From an uncultured Acidobacteriota bacterium (GTDB taxonomy: Bacteria > Acidobacteriota > Terriglobia > Acidiferrales > UBA7541): 64,000 nucleotides of DNA. A program made the position numbers and the translations under genes. A model generated the notes under the pieces. It had not been told where the DNA came from and made no database searches. It saw only the letters and a list, made by a program, of their open reading frames with translations. Positions 2,305 to 61,586 of the stretch are shown here, in pieces (the stretch's first letter is position 1; every line of letters begins with the position of its first letter). Location: positions 438,025 through 502,024 of the forward strand of contig CAWHXI010000001.1 in assembly GCA_963833345.1 (NCBI GenBank). The letters are read 5' to 3'.

Positions 2305-3227
2305 AGTCGAAGCGTCCACCCAAAGTTTGTTTGGGCGTGCGCACTAGAATCCGTACAGGAACGTGGTACGGCGAAAGGCTCCGCCGGTGCGCCGCCAACT
2401 CTGGCTCTTTCAAGGTTGGCGGCGAGCCGCGTAATCACACAAAAAAGGCGGGAGCCTTCCGCACCGGTCGTGGCTGATTGGTTGTTTTTCCTCGCACCCG
2501 GAATTTCGGGGGCATCCTTGTTTTCCCAGTTGGAGGGTCTCACTGGTACTTTTGACAATTCACAAGGAATCGGCACATGCACTAATGTCGATTCACTTGA
2601 ACCGCGAGGGGATCCGGCTTGAGAGACCAACCTCCCTCCGATAGCGGGGCGTATGTTGCCTCGGCTTTCTCTCACATGTTGCCGGGTCCCCCTCCGAATT
2701 TAGGCCAAACAGAAATCACAACGAGTCAACCACCGGGCCGCGCACGCGCAATCGATTTTGCTGGAGTCCATCCTCGCCGGGTCCGACATCCTGTCACTAA
2801 TGACAGTATCGCGTTAGGTGGTGGATCGCTAACTTGGGGCACTTTGGTGCGGATTCGTTTCGCCTTCCTGGGAAACGTTCAACCGTTTCGGTCGGAATCC
2901 GCGCGGATTTTCTTGCTTCGAGCAAGAACAGCCAATTGTGAGCTTCACATGCACGGACGAAGAGAAGAGCCCCCCATGAATTTGATTCGAGTCTGGTGTG
3001 AGACTCGTCTTCAGATCGCGGACGCTAGCTTGAGTTTTATCGCTTGCATACTAGGTGCCCTGGCGGGGATCAGGTTCAGAGGCTTCTACAAACTTCGTCC
3101 ACGAGTGGCCAGGAGCTTCAAGGGCCAATCCGCAGCCTGGAAGAGAACGAGAACCTTCGCTCAACTACCCCTGACAGTCTCACCCCAAGGGGCGCAGGCA
3201 ATTACCGTGTTTGTGGGGAGGTAGAAT

Positions 3228-3860
3228 TTGGGTCGCCCTCGTGTACTGCTCGCTGATGACCATCTCATGCTGGTCGAAGCGCTCAAGAAAGTATTGGAAG
3301 TTGAATATGACGTTGTAGGTTCGGTCGGTGATGGGCTTGCACTTTTGAATGCTGCCGAAAAGCTACGGCCCGACGTCGTCGTACTCGACATTGCCATGCC
3401 CCTCTTGAACGGCCTCGACGCTGGTCGACAGCTGCGACACAATTTTCCCTCCGTAAAACTCGTTTTCCTGACAATGAATGAAGATCCATACCTGGTAGGT
3501 GAGGCTTTTCGCGCCGGAGCTTCCGCGTACTTGCTCAAGCAGGGAGCAGCATTGGAGCTTACCAAGGCAATCTCCGATGTCCTGAAAGGTTTGACCTACG
3601 TAACGCCGTGTATTGCGGGGGGGCTGGCCAACATCTCATTGCTCGACCCCGAAGCTCGTGAGCAAGCCCCCCAACCGACGGCCCGGCAGCGCCAGGTCAT
3701 TCAGCTATTGGCAGAAGGGCGCTCGATGAAGGAGATAGCGGACTTGCTGCACATTACCATGCGGACTGTCGCCTCGCACAAATATCGCGTAATGGAAATC
3801 CTGCAGATCAAGACCAGCGCCGAACTTGTACGCTATGCCGTTAAGCACAGAATCGTTTGA
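3228..3860 (+). CDS. NarL/LuxR-family response regulator (REC + LuxR HTH)
   Basis: Receiver motifs RVLLADDH...DVVVLDIAMPLLNG...FLTM, then LTARQRQVIQLLAEGRSMKEIADLLHITMRTVASHK (LuxR-type HTH). TTG start. Confidence 0.9.
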   Translation: MGRPRVLLADDHLMLVEALKKVLEVEYDVVGSVGDGLALLNAAEKLRPDVVVLDIAMPLLNGLDAGRQLRHNFPSVKLVFLTMNEDPYLVGEAFRAGASAYLLKQGAALELTKAISDVLKGLTYVTPCIAGGLANISLLDPEAREQAPQPTARQRQVIQLLAEGRSMKEIADLLHITMRTVASHKYRVMEILQIKTSAELVRYAVKHRIV

Positions 3861-4156: not shown

Positions 4157-5767
4157 TTGATGAAGTGCATCGGAAAGCAAGCTCTTGTTGTTGCAGTATT
4201 CTTCACAGTTATAGGGTTAGTAGCGCCGCCCTCCGCCTCGGCGCAGGCCAAGAAACCCAATATCCTCGTCATCTTTGGTGACGATATCGGTTATTCCAAC
4301 ATCAGCGCCTACAACCTGGGCCTGATGGGCTACCGAACGCCGAATATCGACCGTGTAGCGCAACAGGGCGCCCTCTTTACTGACTATTACGCACAACAGA
4401 GCTGCACTGCGGGCCGAGCTGCCTTCATTACTGGACAGAGTCCGTTCCGTACCGGGCTGTTGAAAGTCGGGCTCCCCGGCGCTGAGCTCGGGTTGCAGCC
4501 CCAGGATCCTACGATTGCTGATTTGCTGAAGGGCCGTGGTTACATGACCTTCCAGAACGGTAAAAATCATTTGGGCGACCGGAATGAATTTTTCCCCACG
4601 GTGCACGGTTTTGATGAATTCTTCGGCAATTTCTATCACCTGAATGCCGAAGAAGAGCCGGAGAACGTGGACTACCCGAAGAACCCTGCGTTTATGGCCA
4701 AATTTGGGCCGCGAGGTGTCTACAAGTGCAAGGCCACCGCAACAGAGAATCCAGCACCGCCCGATCCCCGTTTTGGTCCTTGGGGCAAGCAGACCTGTGA
4801 AGACACTGGCCCTCTGACCAAGCTGCGCATGGAAACGGCGGATGAAGAGTTTCTCGCGGTAACATTGGACGATATGGATCGCTCTGTAAAAGCGGGCAAG
4901 CCATTCTTCATCTGGCATAACACTACTCGCATGCATATCTGGACCCATCTCCAGCCAAAGTACCAGGCTATGATTCCGGAGAAGGGTCTCTACGGCGCGG
5001 GCATGACGGAATTCGATGACAACATCGGTGTGTTGTTAAAAAAGCTGGACGATTTAGGTATAGCCGACAACACCATCGTCATCATCACTACCGATAACGG
5101 CGCCGAGACGTTTTCCTGGCCCGACGGTGGTACAACCCCATTCCGCGGCGAGAAAAACACCAACTGGGAAGGTGGCTACCGCGTGCCTATGGTCGTTCGC
5201 TGGCCAGGCCTGATCAAACCTGGGACTATAATCAACGATATTTGCGCTCACGAGGATTGGGCTGCCACGCTCCTGGCGGCGGCAGGCGAACCCGATGTTA
5301 CCCAAAAGCTTCTGACGGGCTACCAGTCAAACGGGAAAACCTTCAAAGTCCATCTGGATGGCTACAACCTTATGGATATGCTAGCCGGCAAGGCGCCCGG
5401 GCCGCGCAAGGAGTTCTTCTACTGGACCGATGACGGCGATTTCGCGGGTCTTAGGTACGACAAATGGAAACTCGTTTTCCTGGATCAGCGTGTGCATGGA
5501 TTTGGCGTGTGGAGTGAGCCCTTAGTTGTTCTGCGCGTTCCTTTGATTGAAGACCTCCGTGCCGATCCCTATGAACGGGCCACTTATGAAGCTTCTGACT
5601 ACGACCATTGGATGATTGACCGCATTTACCTCCTCGTTCCGGCGCAGGCGTTCGTCGGGAAGTTCCTGATGACGTTCAAGGAATTCCCCCCGCGCCAGTC
5701 ACCTGCGAGCTTCAGTCTGGACCAGGTGATGCAGAAACTGCGTGAGGGTGTCCAGTCAAATAACTAA
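4157..5767 (+). CDS. arylsulfatase (formylglycine-dependent sulfatase family), secreted
   Basis: Signal peptide, then NILVIFGDDIGYSN...SCTAGRAAFITGQ (C-x-A-x-R FGly motif)...TTDNGAE. AGGAG RBS precedes ATG 4160, which is the likely true start. Confidence 0.9.
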   Translation: MMKCIGKQALVVAVFFTVIGLVAPPSASAQAKKPNILVIFGDDIGYSNISAYNLGLMGYRTPNIDRVAQQGALFTDYYAQQSCTAGRAAFITGQSPFRTGLLKVGLPGAELGLQPQDPTIADLLKGRGYMTFQNGKNHLGDRNEFFPTVHGFDEFFGNFYHLNAEEEPENVDYPKNPAFMAKFGPRGVYKCKATATENPAPPDPRFGPWGKQTCEDTGPLTKLRMETADEEFLAVTLDDMDRSVKAGKPFFIWHNTTRMHIWTHLQPKYQAMIPEKGLYGAGMTEFDDNIGVLLKKLDDLGIADNTIVIITTDNGAETFSWPDGGTTPFRGEKNTNWEGGYRVPMVVRWPGLIKPGTIINDICAHEDWAATLLAAAGEPDVTQKLLTGYQSNGKTFKVHLDGYNLMDMLAGKAPGPRKEFFYWTDDGDFAGLRYDKWKLVFLDQRVHGFGVWSEPLVVLRVPLIEDLRADPYERATYEASDYDHWMIDRIYLLVPAQAFVGKFLMTFKEFPPRQSPASFSLDQVMQKLREGVQSNN

Positions 5768-13147: not shown

Positions 13148-14599
13148 TCACTCCAAGCTGATCGGCACGTAGATCAATCTGCCCTCCCGCTGGATTTGCA
13201 GCACAAAAGGGACTCCCGGTGGGCAAGCTTTCAATGCTGAGCGCAAGCGCTCTAAGGTAGTCATAGGCTGGGTGTTCAAACTGCGGATCACATCCCCCGG
13301 CGCAAGAGGGACGTCCCCTAGGGATCCCGTCACCCGCGCGGTCACAACAATGCCAAACGGATCTCTCAATCCCCGCAACATAGCAGCGGTCTTCTTGTCG
13401 ATTTCCACACCCACTATGCCTAGCGGTGAAATCAGATTCTTTTGAGGGTCCGCAAGCGAGATGAGCTGATCCACATCTTGGCCTTCCTCAACCGTCCCCA
13501 CGCTGAAAACTTGTTTCGCTGTTCCTCTGAGAACGGTGACTTGCACCTTGTCTGCTGAATCCCGCAGGAGGAAAAAATAGTTCACACTCGGCAGGTTGTC
13601 GGCAGGCTGCCCATCGATCGACACCAGTATATCGCCAACCATCAAGCCCGCTGCTTCCGCAGGACCCCCAGGAAGCACGTCCGAAATGATGACCCCATAT
13701 TCCTGTTTCAATCCAAGTCCCACAGCAATGGACGGCGTGATGGTTTGGATTCCAATACCAATCTCTTGCCTGCGCAGGTGTCCGAACTGCTTCAGCTGCC
13801 GGTACACCGTTCTGACCGTTGCCGAAGGGATGGCAAAACCCAACCCCTCGTTCCCACCCGATTGCGAAAGGATGAATGTGTTTACGCCAACGACCTCTCC
13901 ATTTAAGTTTACAAGCGGACCGCCCGAGTTCCCCGGGTTGATCGGTGCGTCGGTTTGGATGTAGATCAGCGGCGAATCAGGGTCGAGTTGCCTTGCCACC
14001 GCCGAGATCAACCCATGAGTGATGGAATTTCTTAGCCCTTCGGGGCTGCCAAAAGCAAAAACAGTATGGCCTTGCCTCACCTCCCGGTAGGACGCTAGCG
14101 GCAGTGCCGGAAGTTTTGTGTTTTCAATTTTTAGCAGCGCGAGGTCCTTCTCACGCGCCACTCCGATGAGTCGAGCCGGGACGGTATCGATCCTTCCCGA
14201 AAGGGCAGTCGCCAGCGAACCGTCCGTGTTTGGGGGTGGAAGGACGACCTCGATGCGCTGCGCTCCGTTCACCACATGCGCGTTCGTTATGATGTAGCCT
14301 TCCGCATCGATGACGAACCCCGAACCGCTGGCGCGTTGCCGTCCAATCACGGCCCCCGCATTCCCCCGGCTGCTATCCTCGAGGGGCGCATAGGCCGTCA
14401 CGATGATCTGGACGACGCTCGGCGAAACCTTTTTGATCAGCGCATCCACCATCGAGTCAAATTGGCTGGCGGATTTTGCCGTGGAAGGTGCTTGGGCGAG
14501 GGCTTGGAACGCGAATCCGAACAGCACACACTGTACCAAAATGGCGCGGCAGCCGAGCCTCTTGGCAAACCGAACGCGATGAAAGCCGACTTCAGGCAT
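13148..14599 (-). CDS. HtrA/DegP/DegQ-family periplasmic serine protease (trypsin-like domain + 2 PDZ)
   Basis: GSGFVIDAEGYIITNAHVV (His), D in REKDLALLKI, GNSGGPLVNLNGEVVGVNT (Ser). Two PDZ-like segments follow. ATG at 14599 is preceded by AAGGAG; the ORF track extends to 14665. Confidence 0.9.
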   Translation of the reverse strand: MPEVGFHRVRFAKRLGCRAILVQCVLFGFAFQALAQAPSTAKSASQFDSMVDALIKKVSPSVVQIIVTAYAPLEDSSRGNAGAVIGRQRASGSGFVIDAEGYIITNAHVVNGAQRIEVVLPPPNTDGSLATALSGRIDTVPARLIGVAREKDLALLKIENTKLPALPLASYREVRQGHTVFAFGSPEGLRNSITHGLISAVARQLDPDSPLIYIQTDAPINPGNSGGPLVNLNGEVVGVNTFILSQSGGNEGLGFAIPSATVRTVYRQLKQFGHLRRQEIGIGIQTITPSIAVGLGLKQEYGVIISDVLPGGPAEAAGLMVGDILVSIDGQPADNLPSVNYFFLLRDSADKVQVTVLRGTAKQVFSVGTVEEGQDVDQLISLADPQKNLISPLGIVGVEIDKKTAAMLRGLRDPFGIVVTARVTGSLGDVPLAPGDVIRSLNTQPMTTLERLRSALKACPPGVPFVLQIQREGRLIYVPISLE

Positions 14600-14998
14600 T
14601 CGACACGCTCCTTTTCCTGGGTCGCCCGATTCGAGAGCCGCTCGATCTTCTGAGCGCTTGGCCACAGGTTTACCCTGTCGGTTCGCGCAGCTCTCCCCGA
14701 GCGTTGGCAGCTTATGACTGCCTACTTAGCTCAGTACACTGGCAAAACTACCGCGTCGCTTTAGCGCTACCCTTGCGCCAGAAGCTAGAGTCGGACTACC
14801 GCCACCCAGGAGCGCGCGCCCCGGGCGTCGCCACTTACAATCCGGTTGCTGCGTCAATCTGCGCCTTGGGGAGAAAAGCCCGCACTAAAATGTGCAATGT
14901 TGGACAGTCAGACCAGATTCTGATTATCTACACTCGCCTCCTAGAGTCTCCAGGTTTGTGTCCACTGGCACGGACCATCAGGAAGTGTGGGAGGGTTT

Positions 14999-15229: not shown

Positions 15230-15332
15230 ACCACACTCTTCAGCAGTCCCTCATCAGTCACGAACACTCTTTTGAATCCTTCTAGTTGAATCACTGCCAA
15301 GTATCATTGATAAAAGTATTAAAAGTGGAGGA

Positions 15333-18300
15333 GTGATGCGCTCACTCGGGGTGTGGTCTGTCCTGGCGGTCTCTCTCTTTTACAGCGGCAGCGGAGCCAT
15401 TGCTGCCGCGCAAGACGCTCCCAGTCCGTTGATAGTGGAAGAAGACAAGATGCGCTTCCGCTTGCTTCCTCATACTGTTCTCGAATTGCCTGTCGTTAAT
15501 TCCACCAATAAACCCGTCTCTGGAAAGTTCAAGCTGTCGTTGCTCAACTACGAGGACGACTCGGTTGCCGCCGCGATGTCAGGAACGTTTGTCGAGTCAC
15601 CGGGCGAAACCGTAGAGAAGATCGATTGGCCAGTCGCACATTTGCCGAGCGACACGCCAACCGAACTCGGCTGGTATCGCCTGCAATACAGCTTTGAGCC
15701 AGAAACCGAGTCTGGCGTACCAGCGGCCAGCGGAATCGTCCAGCTTGGTAAAATCATTACCGACGGGTTCGGAATAACCATCGCTGCGGCAACGAAAGTC
15801 GCGCCCGGCAGCAAGTATCCTGTACGCCTCCATGTAGAAAACCCATCGACGCACCAGCCCTATGCGAATAGTCCCATCGAGCTCGTGCTAGAGTTCGGCG
15901 ACAACGAAGATACTGACGTTAAGCGCAAGATCAAAACCGATGCGGCAGGCAATGCTACCGCTGCCTTTGACCTGCCGCAGAATCCTTCGGATCAACGCGG
16001 AGAGGTCACTGCCACAGTGGCCCGCGGTCCATACAGCGAAGAAGCCAAGCTCGAGTTTGAATTCCCGGATAAGCCCGCTCCGGCACTAACCGTCACAACT
16101 GATAAGCCGCTCTACCAGCCTGGCCAAACCGTTCATGTACGTCTTTTTGCCATCGATTCGGACAGGCACGCCATGGCCGGCGCGAAGTTAGACGTGGAAA
16201 TTGACGATGAAGCTGGCGGCGAACAGTTCCATGAAAAACTGACCACTTCTCGCTTTGGCATTGCTTCGGCGGATTGGGAAATCCCAAAAAAGCTGCAACT
16301 TGGCAATTCCACTATAGTCGCCCAATTTGACCGTTCGGAAGCCGACTACTGGAGTCAACGCCGCACCGAAATCCGCATTAGCCGCTATGAGTTGCCAACT
16401 TTCACCGTCAGCGTCGACCCCGACCATACGTATTATCTCCCCGGCAGCAATGCTGTCGTGGATGTGCATGCGGATTATCTTTTTGACAGGCCTGTGCAAC
16501 ACGGCAAAGTAAGAATCGTACAGCAGGAGAACCGGCACTGGGATTATGCAACGCAGAAATGGGAAGTCGACGAATCGGCGCCCGTCGAAGGTGAACTCGG
16601 GAGCGATGGCCATTTCAAAGGCACGATCAACCTTGCCGACGAATTCAAAAGTTTCAAGGAAGGCGATTCCGATCGATTCGAAGATCTTACTCTGGCGGCG
16701 TATTTGACGGACTCCTCAACCGGCCGCACCGAGCAGCGAAGGTTCAAAATCCGCATAACCGCCCAGCCCATTCACCTGTACGTTCTCGAGTCGGCCACCG
16801 CGCACCGCAATCAGCCTTCTGTTTTCTATGTCACCAGTTCGTACGCCGATGGAACCCCTGTCTCGGCAAAGGGGAAGATATTCGCTGCGCAACCCACCAA
16901 TGACGAGAATTCTCAGAACGGCTTTGACCTCAGCCGCCGCAGGCAAATTGGCAGTTTCCGTACGAATCGCTTTGGCGTCGGCCGCGTGGAAGTTTCTCCC
17001 TTTCTGGAAGAGGATCTTCGCATCCCAACGTGGTACCCCCATCGGCACAATTATCAATATGGCTACGATGAAGCGTCCACTAATGAACCCACCGAGCGTA
17101 CTGCATGGCTCGTACTAGAAGCTCTCGATTCCAAAGGATTAAGCGGTGAGTACGATCAGCAACTTTCCGTCGCAACCAATGATGAATTCCTCCGCGTCCA
17201 GACTGATCAAACTCTATATCACCCCGGAGATTCGATCCTTGTCACGCTGAATTCCAACTCGAAAAATAGAGATGCAGTGTTGAGTGTTTGGGGCGAGAAA
17301 GGACTCCTGTCCTCCCAGCTCGTGCCTTTGGTCCGCGGCCACGCCACCGCAACGGTTGAATTCGATCCGCGCTTCCTCGGAAGTGTTTTTCTGACGGCCT
17401 CCAGCCTGGTTCCTTCCGGCGATCAGCAAACGGCGCTCTACGGATGGACGCAAGTCCTCTACCCGGCCCGCAAAGAGCTAGAAGTAAAGGTAAAGATGCC
17501 GCAAACCACTTTCAAACCCGGTGAGCAAGTTTCCGCCGACGTCCGCGTTCTGACTCCGGAAGGCCATTCGACGGAAAGCGCCCTGGGACTTCTGGTCTTC
17601 GATCGTGCTGTGGCGGAACGCGTTCGAACCGACGAGGATTTCGGACGCGATTATGGCTACTCCATCTTTGATTACTTTGGCTGGGAATATCAACGCAGTA
17701 TTGGTGGCATCAGTCATCGCGACTTGCTTGATTTGGACGCGACCAAGCCATTTCCCGAAGGGCTGGACCTCGTTGCCGAGGGCATGATGCGCACGGGTTC
17801 TGGTCCATGGATGGCCGTCGAATCACTGGAGGGCGGGGGATGGGACGCGCTCGGCGCGTCCGGCACTTTTTCGAAATGGATGCAGATCATGCTCCAACCG
17901 GTCAGAAAAGCTTTGAATGACTGGTACTCCGCGAACGGTGAATACCCAAGCGATGAAACCGGCGTGCGCGCGGCGCTACAGTCGAAAGGTATTGATACCG
18001 ATCAGATCCGCGATCCCTGGGGCAATCCTTTTCTCGTTAAATCTTTTTTTAAGGGCGCGGACCATGTCGTGAACCTCCTCAGCAGCGGTGTGGATAAGAA
18101 GCCCGGCACCAGCGATGACTTCGTCGTCGCCACTTTTCACTGGCCCTACTTTCGTAAAATTGGAATGCAAATCGACCACGCGTCCGCCCAATATTTCTCA
18201 GCGACCGGGAAATATATCCGCGACTATGACACTCTGAAAGAGGAAATGAGAGAGCAGGGAATCGATCTGGATACTCTCCGCGATCCGTGGGGCCACGCGT

Positions 18301-18971
18301 ATTCCTTCACTTTCGATATTTCGGGTCCATATTTCCGAATCTCGGCTGATAGCGCTGGTCCGGACGGCATCTTCAACAGCAAAGCCAAAGCATCGTGGGA
18401 CGACGTCGAAGTCTGGATGTCCAGCATCCACTATTTTATGGCCGAGAACGCCGCACTGAATACTGCCATCGCTGAAAACTTCAAAGCCACTGGATCTTTT
18501 CCCCAGAACGAAGAGCAGCTCAAACCGATTCTCGCCATGGCGAAGTTGGACCCCGAGCGCCTTCTCGATCCTTGGGGCCATCCCTATCACTTTACATTTA
18601 GCGCCCAAAGCCGTTACGCCGACCGGCTCACTGTTCGCGACGTCCGCGCTTATTCCGATCCCGCACAAAGCAAGAAAGTGACAGAAGACATTCCGGTAAC
18701 CCAACAGGTCGCCTACCTCAGCGTGCTTAGCAATGGTCCGCAGAACGATCCGAATCAGGCCTTTTCCGTCACCGAATTCAGCCGCGTAGTTGCTGAACAA
18801 ACGAGCAAGGACAAGGCGCCTGTTGCCACCGGAAATCAAAAACCGCTCGCAGGCAACACCGGCGGCATCTACGGTGTGATCACCGACCCGTCCGGCGCAG
18901 CCATTACCAATGCGGAGGTCACCGCAGTTTCCGTTGACACAGGACAAGTCTTTACAACTCAAGCCGACTAG
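15333..18971 (+). CDS. alpha-2-macroglobulin-like secreted protein, N-terminal part (MG domains + 3 GspG-like modules), ending at an in-frame TAG
   Basis: Signal peptide. MG-type motifs: TTDKPLYQPGQTVHVRL, QTDQTLYHPGDSILVTL, TTFKPGEQVSADVRVL. Three DPWG pseudopilin-like repeats. Ends inside a CarboxypepD_reg domain. Confidence 0.85.
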   Translation: MMRSLGVWSVLAVSLFYSGSGAIAAAQDAPSPLIVEEDKMRFRLLPHTVLELPVVNSTNKPVSGKFKLSLLNYEDDSVAAAMSGTFVESPGETVEKIDWPVAHLPSDTPTELGWYRLQYSFEPETESGVPAASGIVQLGKIITDGFGITIAAATKVAPGSKYPVRLHVENPSTHQPYANSPIELVLEFGDNEDTDVKRKIKTDAAGNATAAFDLPQNPSDQRGEVTATVARGPYSEEAKLEFEFPDKPAPALTVTTDKPLYQPGQTVHVRLFAIDSDRHAMAGAKLDVEIDDEAGGEQFHEKLTTSRFGIASADWEIPKKLQLGNSTIVAQFDRSEADYWSQRRTEIRISRYELPTFTVSVDPDHTYYLPGSNAVVDVHADYLFDRPVQHGKVRIVQQENRHWDYATQKWEVDESAPVEGELGSDGHFKGTINLADEFKSFKEGDSDRFEDLTLAAYLTDSSTGRTEQRRFKIRITAQPIHLYVLESATAHRNQPSVFYVTSSYADGTPVSAKGKIFAAQPTNDENSQNGFDLSRRRQIGSFRTNRFGVGRVEVSPFLEEDLRIPTWYPHRHNYQYGYDEASTNEPTERTAWLVLEALDSKGLSGEYDQQLSVATNDEFLRVQTDQTLYHPGDSILVTLNSNSKNRDAVLSVWGEKGLLSSQLVPLVRGHATATVEFDPRFLGSVFLTASSLVPSGDQQTALYGWTQVLYPARKELEVKVKMPQTTFKPGEQVSADVRVLTPEGHSTESALGLLVFDRAVAERVRTDEDFGRDYGYSIFDYFGWEYQRSIGGISHRDLLDLDATKPFPEGLDLVAEGMMRTGSGPWMAVESLEGGGWDALGASGTFSKWMQIMLQPVRKALNDWYSANGEYPSDETGVRAALQSKGIDTDQIRDPWGNPFLVKSFFKGADHVVNLLSSGVDKKPGTSDDFVVATFHWPYFRKIGMQIDHASAQYFSATGKYIRDYDTLKEEMREQGIDLDTLRDPWGHAYSFTFDISGPYFRISADSAGPDGIFNSKAKASWDDVEVWMSSIHYFMAENAALNTAIAENFKATGSFPQNEEQLKPILAMAKLDPERLLDPWGHPYHFTFSAQSRYADRLTVRDVRAYSDPAQSKKVTEDIPVTQQVAYLSVLSNGPQNDPNQAFSVTEFSRVVAEQTSKDKAPVATGNQKPLAGNTGGIYGVITDPSGAAITNAEVTAVSVDTGQVFTTQAD

Positions 18972-18986
18972 GCGGGAGCCTACGCC

Positions 18987-21431
18987 TTGCTGAATCTGCC
19001 CGCAGGCTTCTACCAAGTCGAGTGCACTTCGAAGGGATTTAACCGCAGCATCGTGCAGCGCGTGCCGGTTGAAATGGGTTTTTCGACAAAGGTCGATCTC
19101 ACACTCAATGTAGGCGCTGTATCGGAGAGCGTAGAAGTCACCGCAAACGCAGCTACAGTTCAAACCCAGTCCGCCCAAGTGACTGCCGTTTCCAACCAAA
19201 TAGCTTCCACCGCACAGAAAAAGCCGCTCTTCACTCCGCGCCTGCGCAAATATTTTCCGGAAACGTTGCTCTGGCGGCCCGAAGTCATCACCGATGAACG
19301 CGGCCATGCCCACATCGACTTCCCCATGGCCGACAATATCACCGCCTGGAAAATGTCTGTGCTTGCCTCCACCGAAGCTGGTCAGGTCGGCATCGCGGAA
19401 AAAGAGCTGCGCAGTTTTCAGCCTTTTTTCCTGGAAAACGATCCGCCAAAGGTTCTGACCGAAGGTGACCAAATCAGTTTGCCAATCGTCCTGCGCAACT
19501 ACACCGCCGTTCCGCAAACGGTCTTCACGGAAATGCAGCCGGCGCAGTGGTTCACGATTCTGTCGGCGCCAAAGCTAAGCCTCACCGTCCCTCCGAACGG
19601 CGACGCCACATCCGTATTCACCTTCCGCGCGGATCGCAGCGAGAGAAACGCCAAGCAGCGCGTGACCGCAAGAAATAGCGCGGCTGGCGACGCCGTCGAA
19701 CGCGAACTGGTTGTTCATCCAGACGGGCAGGAAATTTCATTCACCTCGAGCCGCATTCTTGCGGGCGATCATAATTCTATCGATGTGCAAGTACCCGATA
19801 CCGCCATCTCCGGCTCGATAGACGCCGAACTCCGCATCTATCCGAACTTGCTAGCTCACGTTTTGGACGCCATGCACGGAATTGGCAAGCTTCCCACCGG
19901 TTGCGCCGAGCAAATCACCTCCACGTCCTATGTAAGTCTGATGGCGCTCCAACTCCTCCAGAAAAGCGCACCAGATAAACAGGACACTTTGAATCCGCGT
20001 GCCGCGCTTGCAGCAGAAGCCCGGGCCGCAGTCCAGGAAGGTTACGACCAACTGGCAGGATTGCAGAATTCGGACGGCGGTTTTATCTACTGGAAAGGCA
20101 TGCCATCCAATGTCGCTCTGACCGCCTATGTTTTGCGCTTCTTGAATTTGGCAGGAGACTTCATCGAAGTCGATGGAGCGATCCGCCGAAGGGCGCGCGA
20201 TTATTTGGTCGCACGCCAGGCCAAGTCAGGCGCCTGGACTTCTTATCGCTGGGATCTTCAAAAAGAAAAAGAAGAGGACGATCCCAACCTGACCGCCTAT
20301 GTCGCGCGTGCCTTGGCCGGCATGAAAATTGATCCGGCCGCCAAAGATCCTGAAAAGCAAAAGCAAGCTCAGACCTCGTTGAAATCCGCCCTGGACTTCC
20401 TTGAAGCGCGCATCGATTCCTGGAGCGACCCGTATCTCGCCGGAAACTATGCAATTGCCGCAGTCGAAAGTGCACGCCCGGAGCATATCGAAAACGCCGA
20501 ATCAGTTCTGCGCCGCCTCGCCCATCGCGAAGGCGATGCGACTTACTGGAACCTCGAGGCCAATACATCACCATTCTACGGTTGGGGACTTGCCGGCCGA
20601 CTGGAGACCACCGCACTCGCGGTGAAGGCTCTTTCCGAATTGCAGACCAAGCGTCCTGAGCAAGATGTTCCAGATATGATCAGCCGCGGACTCCAATATC
20701 TCCTGACCCACAAAGATCGATACGCGATGTGGTACTCAACGCAAGCCACACAAAACGTGTTGGAGGCCATGATCGCGGCACTTCCTCCAGCCGCCGAGGG
20801 CGCCGCAGCGTCCGAGGCCGTGCTAAAAATCGATGACCGCGTGCTGCGTTCTGTGGCCCTGCCAAACCCACAAGATGTCGTCGGCCCGGTGACAATTCCA
20901 CTGGCCAACGATTTGACGAAAGGCACGAACAAAATCGAATTCGCTCGATCTGGCAGTGCAGGGGCGATGAATGCCTCGGTAGTCACAAGCTATTACATCC
21001 CGTGGACCGAGTCCGAAGCCATCGCCAAGGAGGCTTTCAAGACGGGCGAGAATCGCGCCCTGCGATTCAAAGTCCTCTACGATCGCAACGAACTTCGATT
21101 GGGAGACACAGTCCGTTGCACCGTCGAAGCCGAGCGCGTCGGATTTCGCGGCTACGGCATGATGCAGGCGGAGGTGGGACTTCCCCCCGGTGCCGAGGTA
21201 GATCGCTCCTCGCTGGAGAACGCCGAATCCTCTCCTGGAGTCTTTGGCTATGAAATTCAGCCCGACAGAGTGGTTTTCTATTTGTGGCCCACCGCTGGGG
21301 GAACAACTTTCGCTTTCGACTTCCGCATGCGATATCGCATCGCAGCAATGACCGCGCCCGCTGTTGTCTACGACTACTACAACCCTGAGGCAAACGCCAC
21401 CGTCGCGCCGGTGCGTTTCACGGTTCGCTAA
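18987..21431 (+). CDS. alpha-2-macroglobulin-like protein, C-terminal part (A2M core, thioester domain, receptor-like domain); same frame as 15333..18971
   Basis: RKYFPETLLWRPEVITDERGHA...DNITAWKMSVLA (A2M core). Thioester motif GCAEQ at 19899..19913. No RBS of its own. Contiguous in frame with the upstream ORF across TAG 18969..18971. Confidence 0.85.
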   Translation: MLNLPAGFYQVECTSKGFNRSIVQRVPVEMGFSTKVDLTLNVGAVSESVEVTANAATVQTQSAQVTAVSNQIASTAQKKPLFTPRLRKYFPETLLWRPEVITDERGHAHIDFPMADNITAWKMSVLASTEAGQVGIAEKELRSFQPFFLENDPPKVLTEGDQISLPIVLRNYTAVPQTVFTEMQPAQWFTILSAPKLSLTVPPNGDATSVFTFRADRSERNAKQRVTARNSAAGDAVERELVVHPDGQEISFTSSRILAGDHNSIDVQVPDTAISGSIDAELRIYPNLLAHVLDAMHGIGKLPTGCAEQITSTSYVSLMALQLLQKSAPDKQDTLNPRAALAAEARAAVQEGYDQLAGLQNSDGGFIYWKGMPSNVALTAYVLRFLNLAGDFIEVDGAIRRRARDYLVARQAKSGAWTSYRWDLQKEKEEDDPNLTAYVARALAGMKIDPAAKDPEKQKQAQTSLKSALDFLEARIDSWSDPYLAGNYAIAAVESARPEHIENAESVLRRLAHREGDATYWNLEANTSPFYGWGLAGRLETTALAVKALSELQTKRPEQDVPDMISRGLQYLLTHKDRYAMWYSTQATQNVLEAMIAALPPAAEGAAASEAVLKIDDRVLRSVALPNPQDVVGPVTIPLANDLTKGTNKIEFARSGSAGAMNASVVTSYYIPWTESEAIAKEAFKTGENRALRFKVLYDRNELRLGDTVRCTVEAERVGFRGYGMMQAEVGLPPGAEVDRSSLENAESSPGVFGYEIQPDRVVFYLWPTAGGTTFAFDFRMRYRIAAMTAPAVVYDYYNPEANATVAPVRFTVR

Positions 21432-21864: not shown

Positions 21865-22260
21865 ATGAAAATCGAAAGAATATTGGGCGGATTGGTGTCC
21901 TTGGGTATGGTTGCGGCGATGGCCGTACCCTTGGCGTTAGCGAAACCACAAGACCCATCCGCACCCCAAGCCTCAGGTAAAGAAATGGGAATGCGCGGTG
22001 GACTGCAGGCCGCAGTAGAGAGCTTGAATCTTACTGACGACCAGAAAGCAAAGGTAAAGGATATCTTTACTGATGCGAAGACCAAGCGCCAAGCAGTATC
22101 CAACGACACTTCGCTTAGCGATGACCAGAAAAAGGCGAAGTTGAAGGAGCTTCACGAAGGCACGATGGCCAAGCTGAACGCCGTGCTGACACCTGATCAA
22201 CAGACCGAGTTGAAGAGCAAGATCGAAGCTGCAAAGACAAAACCACCATCGCAGCCGTGA
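21865..22260 (+). CDS. Spy/CpxP-like periplasmic LTXXQ-motif protein
   Basis: AAGGAG RBS, signal peptide MKIERILGGLVSLGMVAAMAVPLALA. Repeated LTDDQKAKV / LSDDQKKAKL / LTPDQQTEL motifs. Confidence 0.7.
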   Translation: MKIERILGGLVSLGMVAAMAVPLALAKPQDPSAPQASGKEMGMRGGLQAAVESLNLTDDQKAKVKDIFTDAKTKRQAVSNDTSLSDDQKKAKLKELHEGTMAKLNAVLTPDQQTELKSKIEAAKTKPPSQP

Positions 22261-32585: not shown

Positions 32586-34575
32586 CTAGCGGGAGTTTAC
32601 TGCGAGTGCTCTCCCGAAACGCTGCGCATTCCCACTAACTCATTCCATGCGTAGGATTTAATCGGGTTTCTCCTTCTTGGAATGTGTATTACCCTACATT
32701 GTTTGACTGTACTGCGATTATTTCCGCATTTTATGCTTGACAAACAATAGCGTTGCGTTTATGTATTACCCTTAATGGCTAGCCTCGTCAAAAAGAAAAA
32801 AGGCAACCGCCTCTACTACTACCTCGTCGAAAGCGCCCGCGTCGACGGCCAACCTCGTATCGTTCATCAGGCCTATCTGGGCACCGCCGAAAAACTCGCT
32901 GAACTCGTTCAGCAAAAGACGGCCCCTGTCCCGCTCTCCGCCACCTTGCGAGATTTCGGTCTCCCCGGCGCCTTGTGGCTGGCTGCCAAACAGTCCGGCG
33001 TATGGCCACTACTGGAATCCCTGTGGCCTTCTCCGCGTTCCGGACCCGGTCCTGCCCACTATCTCCTGCTCGCGGCCATTCACCGCATCTGTGATCCCGG
33101 TCCGAAGACCGAAGTCAGCCATTGGTACGACCGAACCATCCTCGCTTCCCAGTGGGGTTTTCCTGCCGAACGCTTTACTTCGCAAGCCTTCTGGGACGCC
33201 TTCGAACAGATGCTGCCAGAGACCAGCGAGCCCTGCGCTCCCGCGGAAGATCCTCTCGATCGTGCACAGTTGCGTTTACTCGGTCTGTGGAAGGAGCAGC
33301 AACTGGTCGGTCGTCGACTGCTGGCCTACGATACCACCAACTTTTACACCTACATTGCCAGCACCAACACGCGGAACCAGCTGGCCCAGCGCGGCCACAA
33401 CAAACAGGGCCGCCACAATCTGCGCCAAGTGGGTCTGAGCTATGTTCTGGACGGAGAGAATGGGTTGAGCCTATGCCACCACGTCTATCCGGGTAACGTG
33501 GCCGATGTCGAAGAGTTCCCCGTGGCGTTAACACGCATCGTGCGCTTGCTGGATCAAAACCAAATTGCTCGCGACACCGTTACGCTGGTCTTCGACAAGG
33601 GCACAGCCGCACTGGACAACACCGTGCAACTGGAACAGGCCAGGGTGGGATGGATTTCCGCTCTGCCGTGGAATCAAGCGCCGGCGGAGTTGCGCGAGCG
33701 CTCCACGGAACAGCTGCCGCTCTGCAGCGCGGAACAACCGGGTGTGCGGGCCGTGGCCGAGAAGCTGTTGGTGCATGGCCAGGAATACCTCGCGGTGCTG
33801 AAGTATTCGGCGCCTTTTGCCGCCGAGCAACTGCACAGCTTGACCACCAGCATCAGCCGCGCGCTGCAGTCCCTGCGACGCTTCTCCAAGGAATTGAATA
33901 AACCTCGAGCGCGTTGGACCGAGGAAGGTATCACGCGCAAGATTCAGAAGTGGTTGTCCGGGCAGTTCCTCTCCGAGGTAATTCGCTATCAGCTGGAATC
34001 TCGCGACGGGCAATGGCGACTACAGTTTGATTTCGATCAGGCCGCGTTCGAGCGCCTTCTTGGGCGTCGTTTAGGCCGAACGGTGCTGCTCACCAACCGT
34101 ATGGACTGGACGGCGGAACAAGTGGTGGCCGGTTATGCCGGCCAGCAACAGGTCGAGCGCGTCTTCCGCGGCCTGAAAGACGGAGAGTGGCTCGCTTGGG
34201 GACCGATGCATCACTGGACCGACCGCAAGATTCGCATCCATGCGTTTTACTGCATGCTGGGCATTTCTCTGCTGCAGTATGTGCATCGCCAGGCCAAAGC
34301 TGCCTGGAGCGATCTTTCCATGGAACAACTCATCGAAGAGTTGCAGCAGATTCAGCAGTTCATCCTGCTCTATCCACAGCAAGGCGAGAAAGGCCCTGAT
34401 CGCGCGGCCTATGTGCTCTCGAAGCAAACTCTTGCGCAGCAGGCTTTGACCAAGGCGCTGAAACTGGATGAACTGCAGATTACCCACCGTGGGTAATACC
34501 AACTGGACGATATAAACTTCACAAAAAGAAGCTCTTAGAAATCTGCCGACCGAGTCCGCAGTAAACTCCCGCTAG
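32586..34575 (+). mobile_element. IS1634-family (IS4 superfamily) insertion sequence, ~1.99 kb
   Basis: Perfect 19-bp terminal inverted repeats: CTAGCGGGAGTTTACTGCG at 32586..32604 and its reverse complement at 34557..34575. They enclose a single transposase ORF. Confidence 0.85.
32775..34496 (+). CDS. IS1634-family DDE transposase
   Basis: N-terminus MASLVKKKKGNRLYYYLVESARVDGQPRIVHQAYLG is typical of IS1634-type transposases. DDE candidates: LLAYDTTNFYT, VTLVFDKGT and YAGQQQVERVFRGLK (Y-x2-R/Q-x3-E-x6-K signature). Confidence 0.9.
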   Translation: MASLVKKKKGNRLYYYLVESARVDGQPRIVHQAYLGTAEKLAELVQQKTAPVPLSATLRDFGLPGALWLAAKQSGVWPLLESLWPSPRSGPGPAHYLLLAAIHRICDPGPKTEVSHWYDRTILASQWGFPAERFTSQAFWDAFEQMLPETSEPCAPAEDPLDRAQLRLLGLWKEQQLVGRRLLAYDTTNFYTYIASTNTRNQLAQRGHNKQGRHNLRQVGLSYVLDGENGLSLCHHVYPGNVADVEEFPVALTRIVRLLDQNQIARDTVTLVFDKGTAALDNTVQLEQARVGWISALPWNQAPAELRERSTEQLPLCSAEQPGVRAVAEKLLVHGQEYLAVLKYSAPFAAEQLHSLTTSISRALQSLRRFSKELNKPRARWTEEGITRKIQKWLSGQFLSEVIRYQLESRDGQWRLQFDFDQAAFERLLGRRLGRTVLLTNRMDWTAEQVVAGYAGQQQVERVFRGLKDGEWLAWGPMHHWTDRKIRIHAFYCMLGISLLQYVHRQAKAAWSDLSMEQLIEELQQIQQFILLYPQQGEKGPDRAAYVLSKQTLAQQALTKALKLDELQITHRG

Positions 34576-58404: not shown

Positions 58405-61400
58405 ATGTGGATAGTCAGACTAGCGTTGCGGCGACCTTATACGTTCGTCGTGTTGTCGATACTCATCGTCATAATGGGTGGGCTTTCGATTGTTCGCACG
58501 CCCACCGACATCTTCCCGAACATCGACATTCCCGTTGTCAGCATCATCTGGAATTACAACGGCCTCGTACCTGAAGACATGAGCGATCGCATCGTTAGCG
58601 TCACCGAGCGAGCGCTGACCACTACCGTCGACAACATCGAGCACATCGAATCGCAGTCCCTGTATGGAATTGCTGTCGTCAAAGTGTTCCTGCAGCCGAG
58701 TGCGAACATTCAACAGGGTATTGCGCAGATTACGGCGGTTTCTCAGACCCAACTCAGGCAGTTGCCCGCCGGGAACGACGCCGCCTCTCATTACTTGCCT
58801 ACAGCGCATCGAGCGTGCCGGTTCTCCAGTTGGCCCTCTCGGGACAAAACCTGTCGGAGCAAGAACTCAACGACTATGGCCTGAATTTCATTCGCACGCA
58901 GCTCATCACCGTGCCTGGCGCATCTGTGCCCTATCCCTATGGCGGTAAACAACGCCAGGTGCAGGTAGACCTGAACACGACAGCGTTGCAGTCGAAGGGC
59001 CTGTCCGCGCTGGATGTCGTCAATGCGATCAGCGTGCAAAATCTGATCCTGCCCACGGGAACGTCCAAGATCGGCTCCAGGGAATACGATGTTTCCATTC
59101 CCAATGCAGCGCCGCAGACGATTGCCGACCTAAACCGAATCCCGATCAAGACGATTGGCGGCACGACCATCTACATCAAAGATGTCGCCTGGGTGCGCGA
59201 TGGCTTTCCACCGCAGACGAATATCGTACGCGTTAACGGACAGCGCTCCGTATTGCTGACCATCCAAAAGGCGGGCAATGCGTCAACCCTGAACGTGATC
59301 GCCGGTATCAAGGCGCTTCTGCCTCAAATCAAGACCACGGTTCCACCCCAGCTCGAGATAGCACCCCTGGCTGATCAATCGATTTTCGTTCGTGGTGCGA
59401 TCAGTGGAGTGGTCAGGGAAACGCTGATTGCCGCGTGCCTGACCGCTTTCATGATTCTCATTTTTCTGGGCAGTTGGCGAAGCACCGTCATCATCGCCAC
59501 CTCCATCCCTCTGGCGATCCTGACCTCCATCATTGTGCTTCAGCGCGATCGGAGAAACGATCAATATCATGACCCTCGGTGGACTCGCTCTGGCGGTCGG
59601 CATCCTGGTGGACGACGCCACCGTCGAGGTCGAGAACATCAATCGCAACCGCGAGGCGGAACCCGAGAAGGACATGGACGAAGTTGTCCTCGACAGCGCG
59701 TCGCAAATCGCCACACCTGCCTTCGTGTCCACCCTGTCGATCTGCATTGTGTTTGCTCCCGATGTTTCTGCTGTCCGGCGTGGCGCGGTATCTATTTGTG
59801 CCGCTCGCGGAAGCAGTCGTTTTCGCCATGTTGGCCTCCTATTTTCTGTCGCGGACCATCGTTCCGACAATGGCCAAGTACCTGTTGCGGGGAGAGAAGA
59901 GCGAGGCGAGATGGCCTCGAGCCGCAATCCTTTTGTACGGCTCCAGAAGGGTTTTGAGGCGGCCTTCGAGAGATTTCGTCACAGCTATCGCGGTCTGCTG
60001 GAGATTTGCCTCCATCACCGGCGCTGCTTTCCTGATTGCCTTCTTCGCGACCTGCCTTGGCTCTCTGGCAATTCTGATTCCCTGGTTGGGCCGGGACTTC
60101 TTCCCCAGCGTTGACAGCGGCTCTTTCAAGCTTCATTTGCGTGCGCCCACTGGAATGCGCATCGAGGAAACCGCCAACCTTTGCGATCAGGTCGAACAGT
60201 CGATTCGGCAGCAGATTCCGGCAGGCGAAGTCCACAACGTGATTGACAACATAGGTCTGCCCTACAGCGGCATCAATCTTTCCTACAGCAATTCGGCGCC
60301 CGTTGGCACATCGGACGCCGACATTCTTGTGACGCTTTCCGCCAATCACCATCCCACGGACGACTACATTCACCACCTTCGTCTGACGCTCCCAAAACAG
60401 TTTCCCGGTGTGACCTTCGCGTTCTTGCCTGCGGACATGGTCAGCCAAATCCTGAATTTTGGCTTGCCGGCCCCGATCGATGTTCAGGTGGTGGGAAACG
60501 ACCTGGAGGGAAACCGGCGCTATGCAAATGCGCTGCTCAGCAAGTTGAAATACGTTACAGGAACGGCGGATCTGCGGATCCAGCAGCCCTTCGATGAGCC
60601 TTATCTGAACCTGCGGGTCGAGCGGACGAAGGCAGAGGAGCTTGGTTTCACTGCTCACGATATTGCGCAAAATCTTCTTGTGTCACTGAGCGGCAGCTTC
60701 CAAACCTCACCAACATTCTGGGTTGACCCCAAGAATCGTGTCAGCTATCAAATCGCCACGCAGACGCCGCAATATCGCGACCGACACATTGCAGGATGTT
60801 GAGAACATCCCGATCACCGGCACAGACCCAACAGCTCCTCCGTCGCTCATGGCCAGTCTGGTATCAACGCAACGCGGCGCGGGAATGGCAGTGGTTTCTC
60901 ATTACAACGTAGCGCCGGTGATTGACATCTTTGGCGCGGCCACCGGACGCGATCTGGGCGGCGTGGCGGGCGACATCAATAAGATCATTGACGATACACG
61001 CCAGCAACTACCGCGCGGTTCTCGCGTCGTTGTCCGTGGGCAGGTTCAAACGATGCGAGCGTCCTACATCGGTCTTCTGAGCGGACTGGCGTTCTCGATC
61101 GTGCTCGTATACCTGCTGATCGTCGTCAACTTTCAGTCCTGGTTGGATCCTTTCATCATGATTTCCGCGCTGCCTGCAGCTCTCGCAGGCATTGCCTGGT
61201 TTTTGTTCATAACGCAGACGACTCTCAGCGTGCCCGCGCTTATGGGGGCCATCATGTGCATGGGCGTGGCCACCTCCAACAGCATCTTGGTCGTGAGCTT
61301 TGCTACGGAGAAAATGCAGGAAGGAAGTGATTCCATCAGCGCCGCGTTGGAGGCGGGCTTTACGCGCTTTCGACCTGTGCTGATGACTGCGCTGGCCATG

Positions 61401-61586
61401 ATCATCGGCATGGTGCCCATGGCCCTCGGACTGGGAGACGGAGGCGAACAAAATGCCCCTCTTGGCCGGGCGGTCATAGGTGGCTTGATTTTCGCTACGG
61501 TTTCGACGCTGTTCTTTGTCCCGGCATTTTTCAGCGTTCTGCAGGGTTCGCGCCGGCATTCGGCTCAACCGGTAAAGCAGCACTAA
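58405..61586 (+). pseudogene. RND efflux permease (AcrB/CzcA superfamily) disrupted by at least 7 frameshifts
   Basis: Collinear RND segments are spread over ORFs 58405.., 58664.., 58815.., 59533.., 59579.. and 60723.. in frames 1,2,0,1,2,1,2,0. Examples: ..RQLP|PPGTTPPLI|AYSASSVPVLQL.., ..TSIIVL|SAIGETINIMTLGGLALAVGILVDDA.., ..IVFAP|MFLLSGVARYLFVPLAEAV.. Confidence 0.85.

Follow-up and report, generated by a model that had tools for sequence, protein, structure and literature searches.

Background

In proteins of the alpha-2-macroglobulin (A2M) family, cleavage of the bait region leads to a rearrangement in which the CXEQ thioester of the thioester domain (TED) is exposed and the protease is trapped (PMC5764988, PMC4498604, PMC9181621). 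Type I bacterial members, such as ECAM (YfhM) of E. coli and SaA2M of Salmonella, are presumed to trap proteases that reach the periplasm (PMC5764988, PMC4498604). Type II members, such as MagD of P. aeruginosa and YfaS of E. coli, have no CXEQ motif and are encoded in a six-gene mag operon (PMC5764988). Here we describe a gene of this family in a stretch of 64,000 nucleotides (nt), the window, from an uncultured Acidobacteriota bacterium (contig CAWHXI010000001.1, positions 438,025 to 502,024). The gene lies on the + strand at 15336..21431 and is interrupted by an in-frame amber codon, TAG, at 18969..18971. Judged by comparison with related sequences, the interruption would be a real, strain-specific nonsense mutation and the gene a young pseudogene in early decay, a reading to which we give a probability of roughly 0.6.

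Under mutation as well as under sequencing error the finding is ordinary. The gene family is of more interest than the stop: it is a thioester protein widespread in Acidobacteriota, with pseudopilin-like modules at the place of the bait region.

Comparison with described macroglobulins

Read across the amber codon, the N-terminal part of the protein contains macroglobulin (MG) domains (PF01835 MG2, E = 1e-21; PF17791 MG3, above the cut-off), with PF17789 MG4 scoring just under the cut-off, and in a PDB search MG1-MG3 of complement C3/C5 aligned with query residues 203-393. The bait-region domain (PF07703, E = 3e-11) was found at amino acids (aa) 620-760, then A2M (MG7; PF00207, E = 5e-19), a thioester domain (PF07678, E = 5e-26) with the CXEQ motif in the form GCAEQ, and a receptor-binding (MG8) domain (PF07677, E = 2e-9). 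With all domain hallmarks present, the intact protein is a member of the A2M/TEP superfamily, and its capacity for protease trapping is presumed from the family.

Between A2M_BRD and A2M (MG7) lies an insert of ~520 aa (17643..19206, aa ~770-1290; PF08334, E = 1e-9, and PF13620). It is built of three modules resembling pseudopilin G (GspG) of the type II secretion system, with DPWG motifs at 18012, 18282 and 18567, ~90-95 aa apart, and ends in a CarboxypepD_reg beta-sandwich, the domain in which the stop falls. The PDB alignments pass over the insert, query residues 1302-2020 corresponding to A2M residues 717-1432. Conservation of the insert extends to more than 100 Acidobacteriota homologues of ~2,030 aa; the insert was located at 12218-14200 of L001, a contig syntenic with the window that encodes the protein P0001, and at 20 other loci. 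We know of no description of a macroglobulin in which three pseudopilin-like modules and a CarboxypepD_reg domain stand at the place of the bait region.

Eukaryote-type A2M, A2ML1, CD109, insect TEP1 and complement C3/C4 show the same Pfam order (MG2/MG3/MG4, A2M_BRD, MG7, TED_complement with CXEQ, A2M_recep). The best PDB matches were 7s62 (A2M), 2pn5 (TEP1), C4, CD109 and human A2M, with E-values from 1e-29 to 1e-23 over query residues 1300-2020, and A2ML1 was also among them. The window protein differs from these proteins in being bacterial, in its signal-peptide-like N-terminus, in the insert at the bait region and in being cut by a stop. At E <= 1e-3, all chains that phmmer found in the PDB were eukaryotic (A2M, TEP, CD109, complement and cobra venom factor), with no ECAM or SaA2M chain among them. 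As far as can be read from sequence, the protein family is nearer to animal A2M, TEP and complement than to the Type I A2M of E. coli and Salmonella.

Type I proteins are likewise exported bacterial macroglobulins with a CXEQ thioester, but they are ~1,650 aa long, against ~2,030 aa for the window protein, and have pbpC (PBP1c) as a neighbour, which the window gene does not. They also carry a lipobox Cys, whereas in the window and in the near-identical locus L006 the sequence is SLFYSGSGA and lacks a Cys. A Cys is present in P0001 (SLFYCGSGA) and in a second close homologue, P0002 (SLFYCGAGA), but the Tyr at -1 is atypical. With Type II A2M the window protein has the macroglobulin fold in common, and several homologues have been automatically named 'YfaS' at JGI. 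Since GCAEQ is present and no mag operon surrounds the gene, the protein is not of Type II.

Interruption of the gene and the ancestral codon

The open reading frames (ORFs) 15333..18971 and 18987..21431 share one frame. In a one-frame translation of 2,033 codons, TAG 18969-18971 was the sole internal stop between 15333 and the TAA at 21429-21431, which agrees with the sequence-only reading that a single TAG interrupts one A2M-like frame. The likely start is ATG 15336 rather than GTG 15333; a Shine-Dalgarno-like GGAGGAG (15327..15333) lies 5' of this ATG, and the N-termini of the orthologues likewise read MRSLGV. The joined frame from ATG 15336 to the TAA ending at 21431 comprises 2,031 codons, TAG being codon 1212 in the local context GCC GAC TAG GCG GGA GCC.

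The upstream part (15336..18971, 1,211 codons and TAG) holds the signal-peptide-like N-terminus, MG2/MG3/MG4, A2M_BRD, the three pseudopilin-G-like modules and the first 34 residues of the CarboxypepD_reg domain. Its translation matches the deposited protein P0134 (1,211 aa; NCBI and ENA, on a contig of 721,787 bp) exactly, and a truncated product of this type occurs on one contig only. The downstream part (18972..21431, 819 codons and TAA) holds the rest of the CarboxypepD_reg domain, A2M (MG7), the thioester domain and the receptor-binding (MG8) domain; it contains no further stop or frameshift, and an ungapped comparison with L006 showed no indel. The CarboxypepD_reg-type domain (18867..19106) matches the Pfam profile at positions 2-35 before the TAG and 38-81 after it, so that the domain is cut internally, as had been proposed. 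The A2M hallmarks of the downstream half, the thioester motif GCAEQ (19899..19913) and RKYFPETLLWRPEV (19245-19286), were found where the same reading had placed them. The Pfam assignments, the PDB matches and the thioester motif in the sequence also agree with its view that the stop removes the thioester half. The superfamily carries all its domains on one polypeptide; this holds for the relatives and fails for the window allele, which is a predicted disrupted member of the A2M family.

With the joined frame as the query, 1,069 proteins were found at E <= 1e-10. The two halves had been taken for one gene, and the relatives bear this out: 118 of the 120 best homologues are single proteins of 1,980-2,098 aa that cover 98-100 % of the query and have the same domain set. 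Among 21 GTDB species-representative loci, all from metagenome-assembled genomes (MAGs) of Acidobacteriota (labelled Acidoferrales, Acidiferrum, Acidobacteriaceae, Angelobacter and Blastocatellia), 19 have one intact ORF.

The closest proteins, P0001, P0002 and P0003 (95 %, 89 % and 79 % identity), all read TTQADYAGAY at the site of the stop, the codon in their DNA being TAT, TAT and TAC, respectively. By locus, the codon is TAT in L006 (99.92 % identical), L001, L002, L029 and L030, and TAC in L003. A scan of JGI metagenomes with a 30-mer carrying N at the critical base gave two contigs, both with TAT. Across 128 homologues the column contains S, Y, A, G and others, and a residue is present in all of them. 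Because the relatives have Tyr at codon 1212, the lesion is, as reconstructed from their codons, a single TAT>TAG (T>G) transversion at Tyr1212. The alignment of orthologues that had been proposed as a check thus gave Tyr (TAT/TAC) at the site. The rule attached to it, that a sense codon in orthologues would mean an assembly error, is too strong, since a real recent mutation predicts the same. Relative to the 95 % relative, the long-term dN/dS is 0.18 before the stop and 0.15 after it; as it is equally low on either side, the inactivation is recent in relation to that relative.

Comparison with a near-identical contig

Contig ERZ25039525:contig_119687 (784 kb), from another sample, has the same neighbourhood and an intact gene of 2,031 aa. 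An ungapped comparison of the gene showed 5 differences in 6,096 nt and no indel. At 15758 the window has T and contig_119687 C, a synonymous difference. The other four are C against T at 17715 (His794 against Tyr), C against T at 18631 (Thr1099 against Ile), G against T at 18971 (the stop against Tyr) and A against T at 21166 (Gln1944 against Leu). With L001, L030 and L002 as outgroups, the window carries the derived state at these four of the five sites, each time with a non-synonymous effect; the 12 closest relatives (12/12) read Y/I/Y/L at the four positions. Tyr794His (T>C) replaces a residue that is Tyr in 114 of the 128 homologues, and Leu1944Gln (T>A) affects a position that is L, I, V or M in 128 of 128, whereas Ile1099Thr (T>C) falls at a variable position. 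Two of the changes are therefore at near-invariant residues, as relaxed constraint would have it, and the sense codon, one base away from the stop, is kept in a genome that differs from the window at 5 of the 6,096 nt.

The comparison with contig_119687 spanned nearly the entire window. Beyond two diverged tracts (1205-2482; 58446 onward) and an insertion sequence (IS) of 1,982 bp, few sites differed. Outside the gene, synonymous differences were found at 4501, 4744, 6557, 8825 and 51558 and intergenic ones at 14667 and 32502, together with two one-base indels; the only scattered non-synonymous difference, at 3113, lies in a hypothetical gene. In the diverged tracts too, the differences are mostly synonymous (10 synonymous and 5 non-synonymous in an outer membrane protein (OMP) gene, 80 and 16 in an RND pump gene). 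Coding differences elsewhere thus amount to 95 synonymous and 22 non-synonymous, against 1 and 4 in the gene (Fisher p = 0.007). At the long-term omega of the gene, 0.17, the probability that four of four changes are non-synonymous is 0.016; under neutrality it is 0.34. The four non-synonymous changes and the one synonymous change fit an allele that has been drifting neutrally since about the strain split.

Because the substitutions elsewhere are mostly synonymous, the substitutions that separate the window from contig_119687 resemble true divergence on which selection has acted. Over a span of 3.4 kb the window is matched with 100 % identity by Logan k-mer contigs from run ERR12036785. This span takes in four sites at which the window and contig_119687 differ (sites other than the stop at 18971), and those four differences are therefore not polishing artefacts.

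Taken together, the comparisons suggest the following course of events. The locus would be a single gene encoding a secreted thioester protein of the eukaryote-type alpha-2-macroglobulin kind, in a soil bacterium of the Acidobacteriota (Acidoferrales-like), and in the window strain a single T>G would have turned Tyr1212 (TAT) of this gene into an amber TAG. Since then the allele would have drifted without constraint for about as long as it has been split from its closest sampled relative, and would have gained three private missense changes, of which Y794H and L1944Q fall at near-invariant residues. Termination at 18971 would release an exported fragment of 1,211 aa with the signal-peptide-like N-terminus, MG1-MG6 and the pseudopilin-like modules, ending 34 residues into the beta-sandwich. 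As this fragment would have no MG7, no CUB/TED with the CXEQ thioester and no MG8, it would be unable to trap or covalently bind proteases, and it would probably be degraded. Re-initiation at TTG 18987 is physically plausible; its product would be cytoplasmic, with no signal peptide and with its first domain broken.

Ordinary nonsense pseudogenes of accessory genes show the same one-base change, the same intact remaining frame and the same early relaxed constraint, and the window allele does not differ from them in kind, the correctness of the base call being the sole uncertainty. The two ORFs are best annotated as one disrupted gene of the A2M family, marked either as a pseudogene or as a suspected sequencing error, and not as two proteins, the deposited P0134 (1,211 aa) being the truncation product.

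Consensus error as an alternative explanation

The alternative that survives best, which we hold to be possible but doubtful, is that the TAG is a polishing or assembly consensus error in a MAG built from long reads only, and that the gene of the organism is intact, with TAT. A near-identical contig from another sample can help to tell real decay from an error of this kind, and a number of observations weigh against a real mutation. The contig that is 99.92 % identical does have TAT and an intact gene of 2,031 aa. The related contigs belong to the Microflora Danica (MFD) MAG set, a collection for which Flye assemblies of Nanopore reads received a single round of Medaka and no short-read polishing (PMC12313526), and the window is probably of the same Nanopore-only, MFD-type origin. 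The two GTDB loci in which the homologue is not intact are both MFD long-read MAGs, frameshifted elsewhere in the gene, once in L015 (2853-8880) and at least six times in L022 (2809-8889); the other MFD loci and the non-MFD loci are intact, and we take these frameshifts as a hint of the error rate of long-read MFD data. In the window itself, the RND pump gene carries seven one-base, frameshifting insertions that resemble consensus errors. The four private changes in the A2M-family gene, mostly damaging and concentrated in one gene, resemble random errors, 76 % of random substitutions being non-synonymous. On the coding strand each of the four replaces a T (T>C, T>C, T>G and T>A). The chance of such a pattern is ~0.017 if any single base may be the shared one and ~0.002 if it has to be T, and the pattern could hint at a technical cause. 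Finally, the statistics rest on five differences only, a small sample, and against the scattered differences alone the Fisher test gives p = 0.067.

On the other side, the lesion is a substitution, and 0 indels were found in the 6,096 nt of the gene, while indels are the usual type of long-read error. Only 3.6 % of random substitutions in the gene yield a stop, and the error reading needs four substitution errors concentrated in this one gene, whereas the other window-specific substitutions (synonymous or intergenic) look filtered by selection and one block of them is backed by the Logan k-mer contigs. The sequence contexts of the four private sites have no motif in common, which speaks against methylation-linked miscalls; that variant of the explanation was rejected. 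Of the three options that had been put forward from the sequence alone, the nonsense mutation is thus favoured and the assembly error remains, while read-through, treated below, drops out.

The RND pump gene (AcrB/RND, 58405-61586) is broken into four ORFs in different frames, which match the ACR_tran profile at 1-121, 136-377, 446-747 and 771-1020; an intact gene of 1,057 aa is present in the near-identical contig (L031:18389-20648). From 58446 on, the window gene is a diverged allele with 80 synonymous and 16 non-synonymous codon differences. The seven insertions, at 58771, 58791, 59541, 59757, 59906-7 and 60023, seem to be long-read consensus errors, made in a patch where strains are mixed, and not signs of decay, and the contig is therefore not error-free.

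Recoding, re-initiation and a two-gene arrangement

It is very unlikely that the stop is real and the locus nevertheless functional, be it by amber read-through, suppression or pyrrolysine, or through a protein made in two pieces after re-initiation at TTG 18987. The sequence-only reading saw no Shine-Dalgarno sequence for the downstream half; this does not hold, as GGGAG (18974-18978) sits 8 nt 5' of the in-frame TTG (18987-18989), which itself lies 16 nt past the stop. Together with the 819 downstream codons, in which there is no second lesion apart from L1944Q, this would suit re-initiation. However, GGGAG is a side effect of the codons GCG GGA GCC (Ala-Gly-Ala), and the same bases are present in intact relatives, so that 18974..18989 is a chance re-initiation candidate. 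A re-initiated C-terminal fragment would moreover be made with no signal peptide, and a beta-sandwich divided in this way would not fold. The stop is missing from the 99.92 %-identical genome and from all other relatives, and as it is unique to the window allele, nothing has been selected around it; the private changes Y794H and L1944Q likewise speak against ongoing selection.

Programmed recoding would in addition have the stop conserved, while close relatives have Tyr (TAT/TAC), and would leave TAG unused as a terminator. In the window TAG ends at least six Pfam-supported or syntenically called genes (e.g. at 3224, 7127, 44279, 46195, 52128 and 56088), and the terminators of the long ORFs are 15 TAG, 19 TGA and 20 TAA (n = 54). 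No tRNA or Rfam family was found in the window, the RNA fold around the stop does not stand out (z = -0.68), and a scan for promoters and terminators around the stop gave nothing above chance. Reassignment of TAG, including pyrrolysine, was rejected because TAG ends many ordinary genes, the relatives have Tyr and the window holds no tRNA. That the strain still draws some function from the locus, by low-level read-through or suppression, as a naturally split thioester protein or through a use of the MG scaffold of its own, we regard as highly improbable.

A second junction of the same appearance, TAG 3222-3224 between the same-frame ORFs 2619..3224 and 3228..3860, was rejected as a normal gene boundary; ORF 3228..3860, which begins 3 nt past the TAG, is a complete NarL-type response regulator matched from residue 6.

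An evolved design of two genes, one for the MG scaffold and one for the thioester part, has the two ORFs themselves and the deposited 1,211-aa protein in its favour, but its probability is negligible: the boundary halves a domain, close and distant relatives are single ORFs, the truncated product occurs on one contig only, and an independent second gene, proposed earlier as the sign of a genuine two-gene arrangement, was found in no relative, so that the orthologue comparison led to its rejection. Even taken jointly, recoding, functional splitting and a two-gene design account for very little of the probability.

Two origins of the private changes were also considered and rejected. A diversity-generating retroelement or other targeted mutagenesis does not agree with changes at T rather than A, spread over 3.4 kb, with no repeat. 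Import from a co-occurring strain does not agree with the rarity of the variants, His794, the stop and Gln1944 being found in 0 of the 12 closest relatives and in at most 1 of the 128 homologues.

Other features of the window

The gene is adjoined by an HtrA/DegP-like serine protease gene with PDZ domains (13148-14599, - strand) and by a gene for a small LTXXQ-motif (Spy/CpxP-like) protein (21865-22260, + strand), with response-regulator and histidine-kinase genes of two-component systems nearby. This neighbourhood appears to have an envelope-stress flavour. It is common to L001 and contig_119687 but not to L002 or L003, and is therefore not a conserved operon.

An antisense ORF of 439 aa (18198..19517, - strand) spans the stop. 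It has no Pfam match and is most likely spurious, lying opposite a GC-rich coding region. The exact products of the first and second ORF of the gene, of the IS transposase and of the 218-aa OMP had no match in the contig index, and the product of the second ORF from ATG 19074 had none in the protein collection.

The tract 1205-2482, with the beta-barrel OMP gene at 1663-2304, shows 22 substitutions relative to the otherwise near-identical contig and looks like a recombination import. The Logan contig L035 agrees with the bases of the window at 2389, 2429 and 2482. The IS of 1,982 bp (32590-34571) is absent from the related contigs L004 and L005. It has the inverted repeats CGGGAGTTTACTGCG, a CTAG target duplication and a DDE_Tnp_1 transposase of 573 aa (32775-34496), and its insertion is a genuine strain difference.

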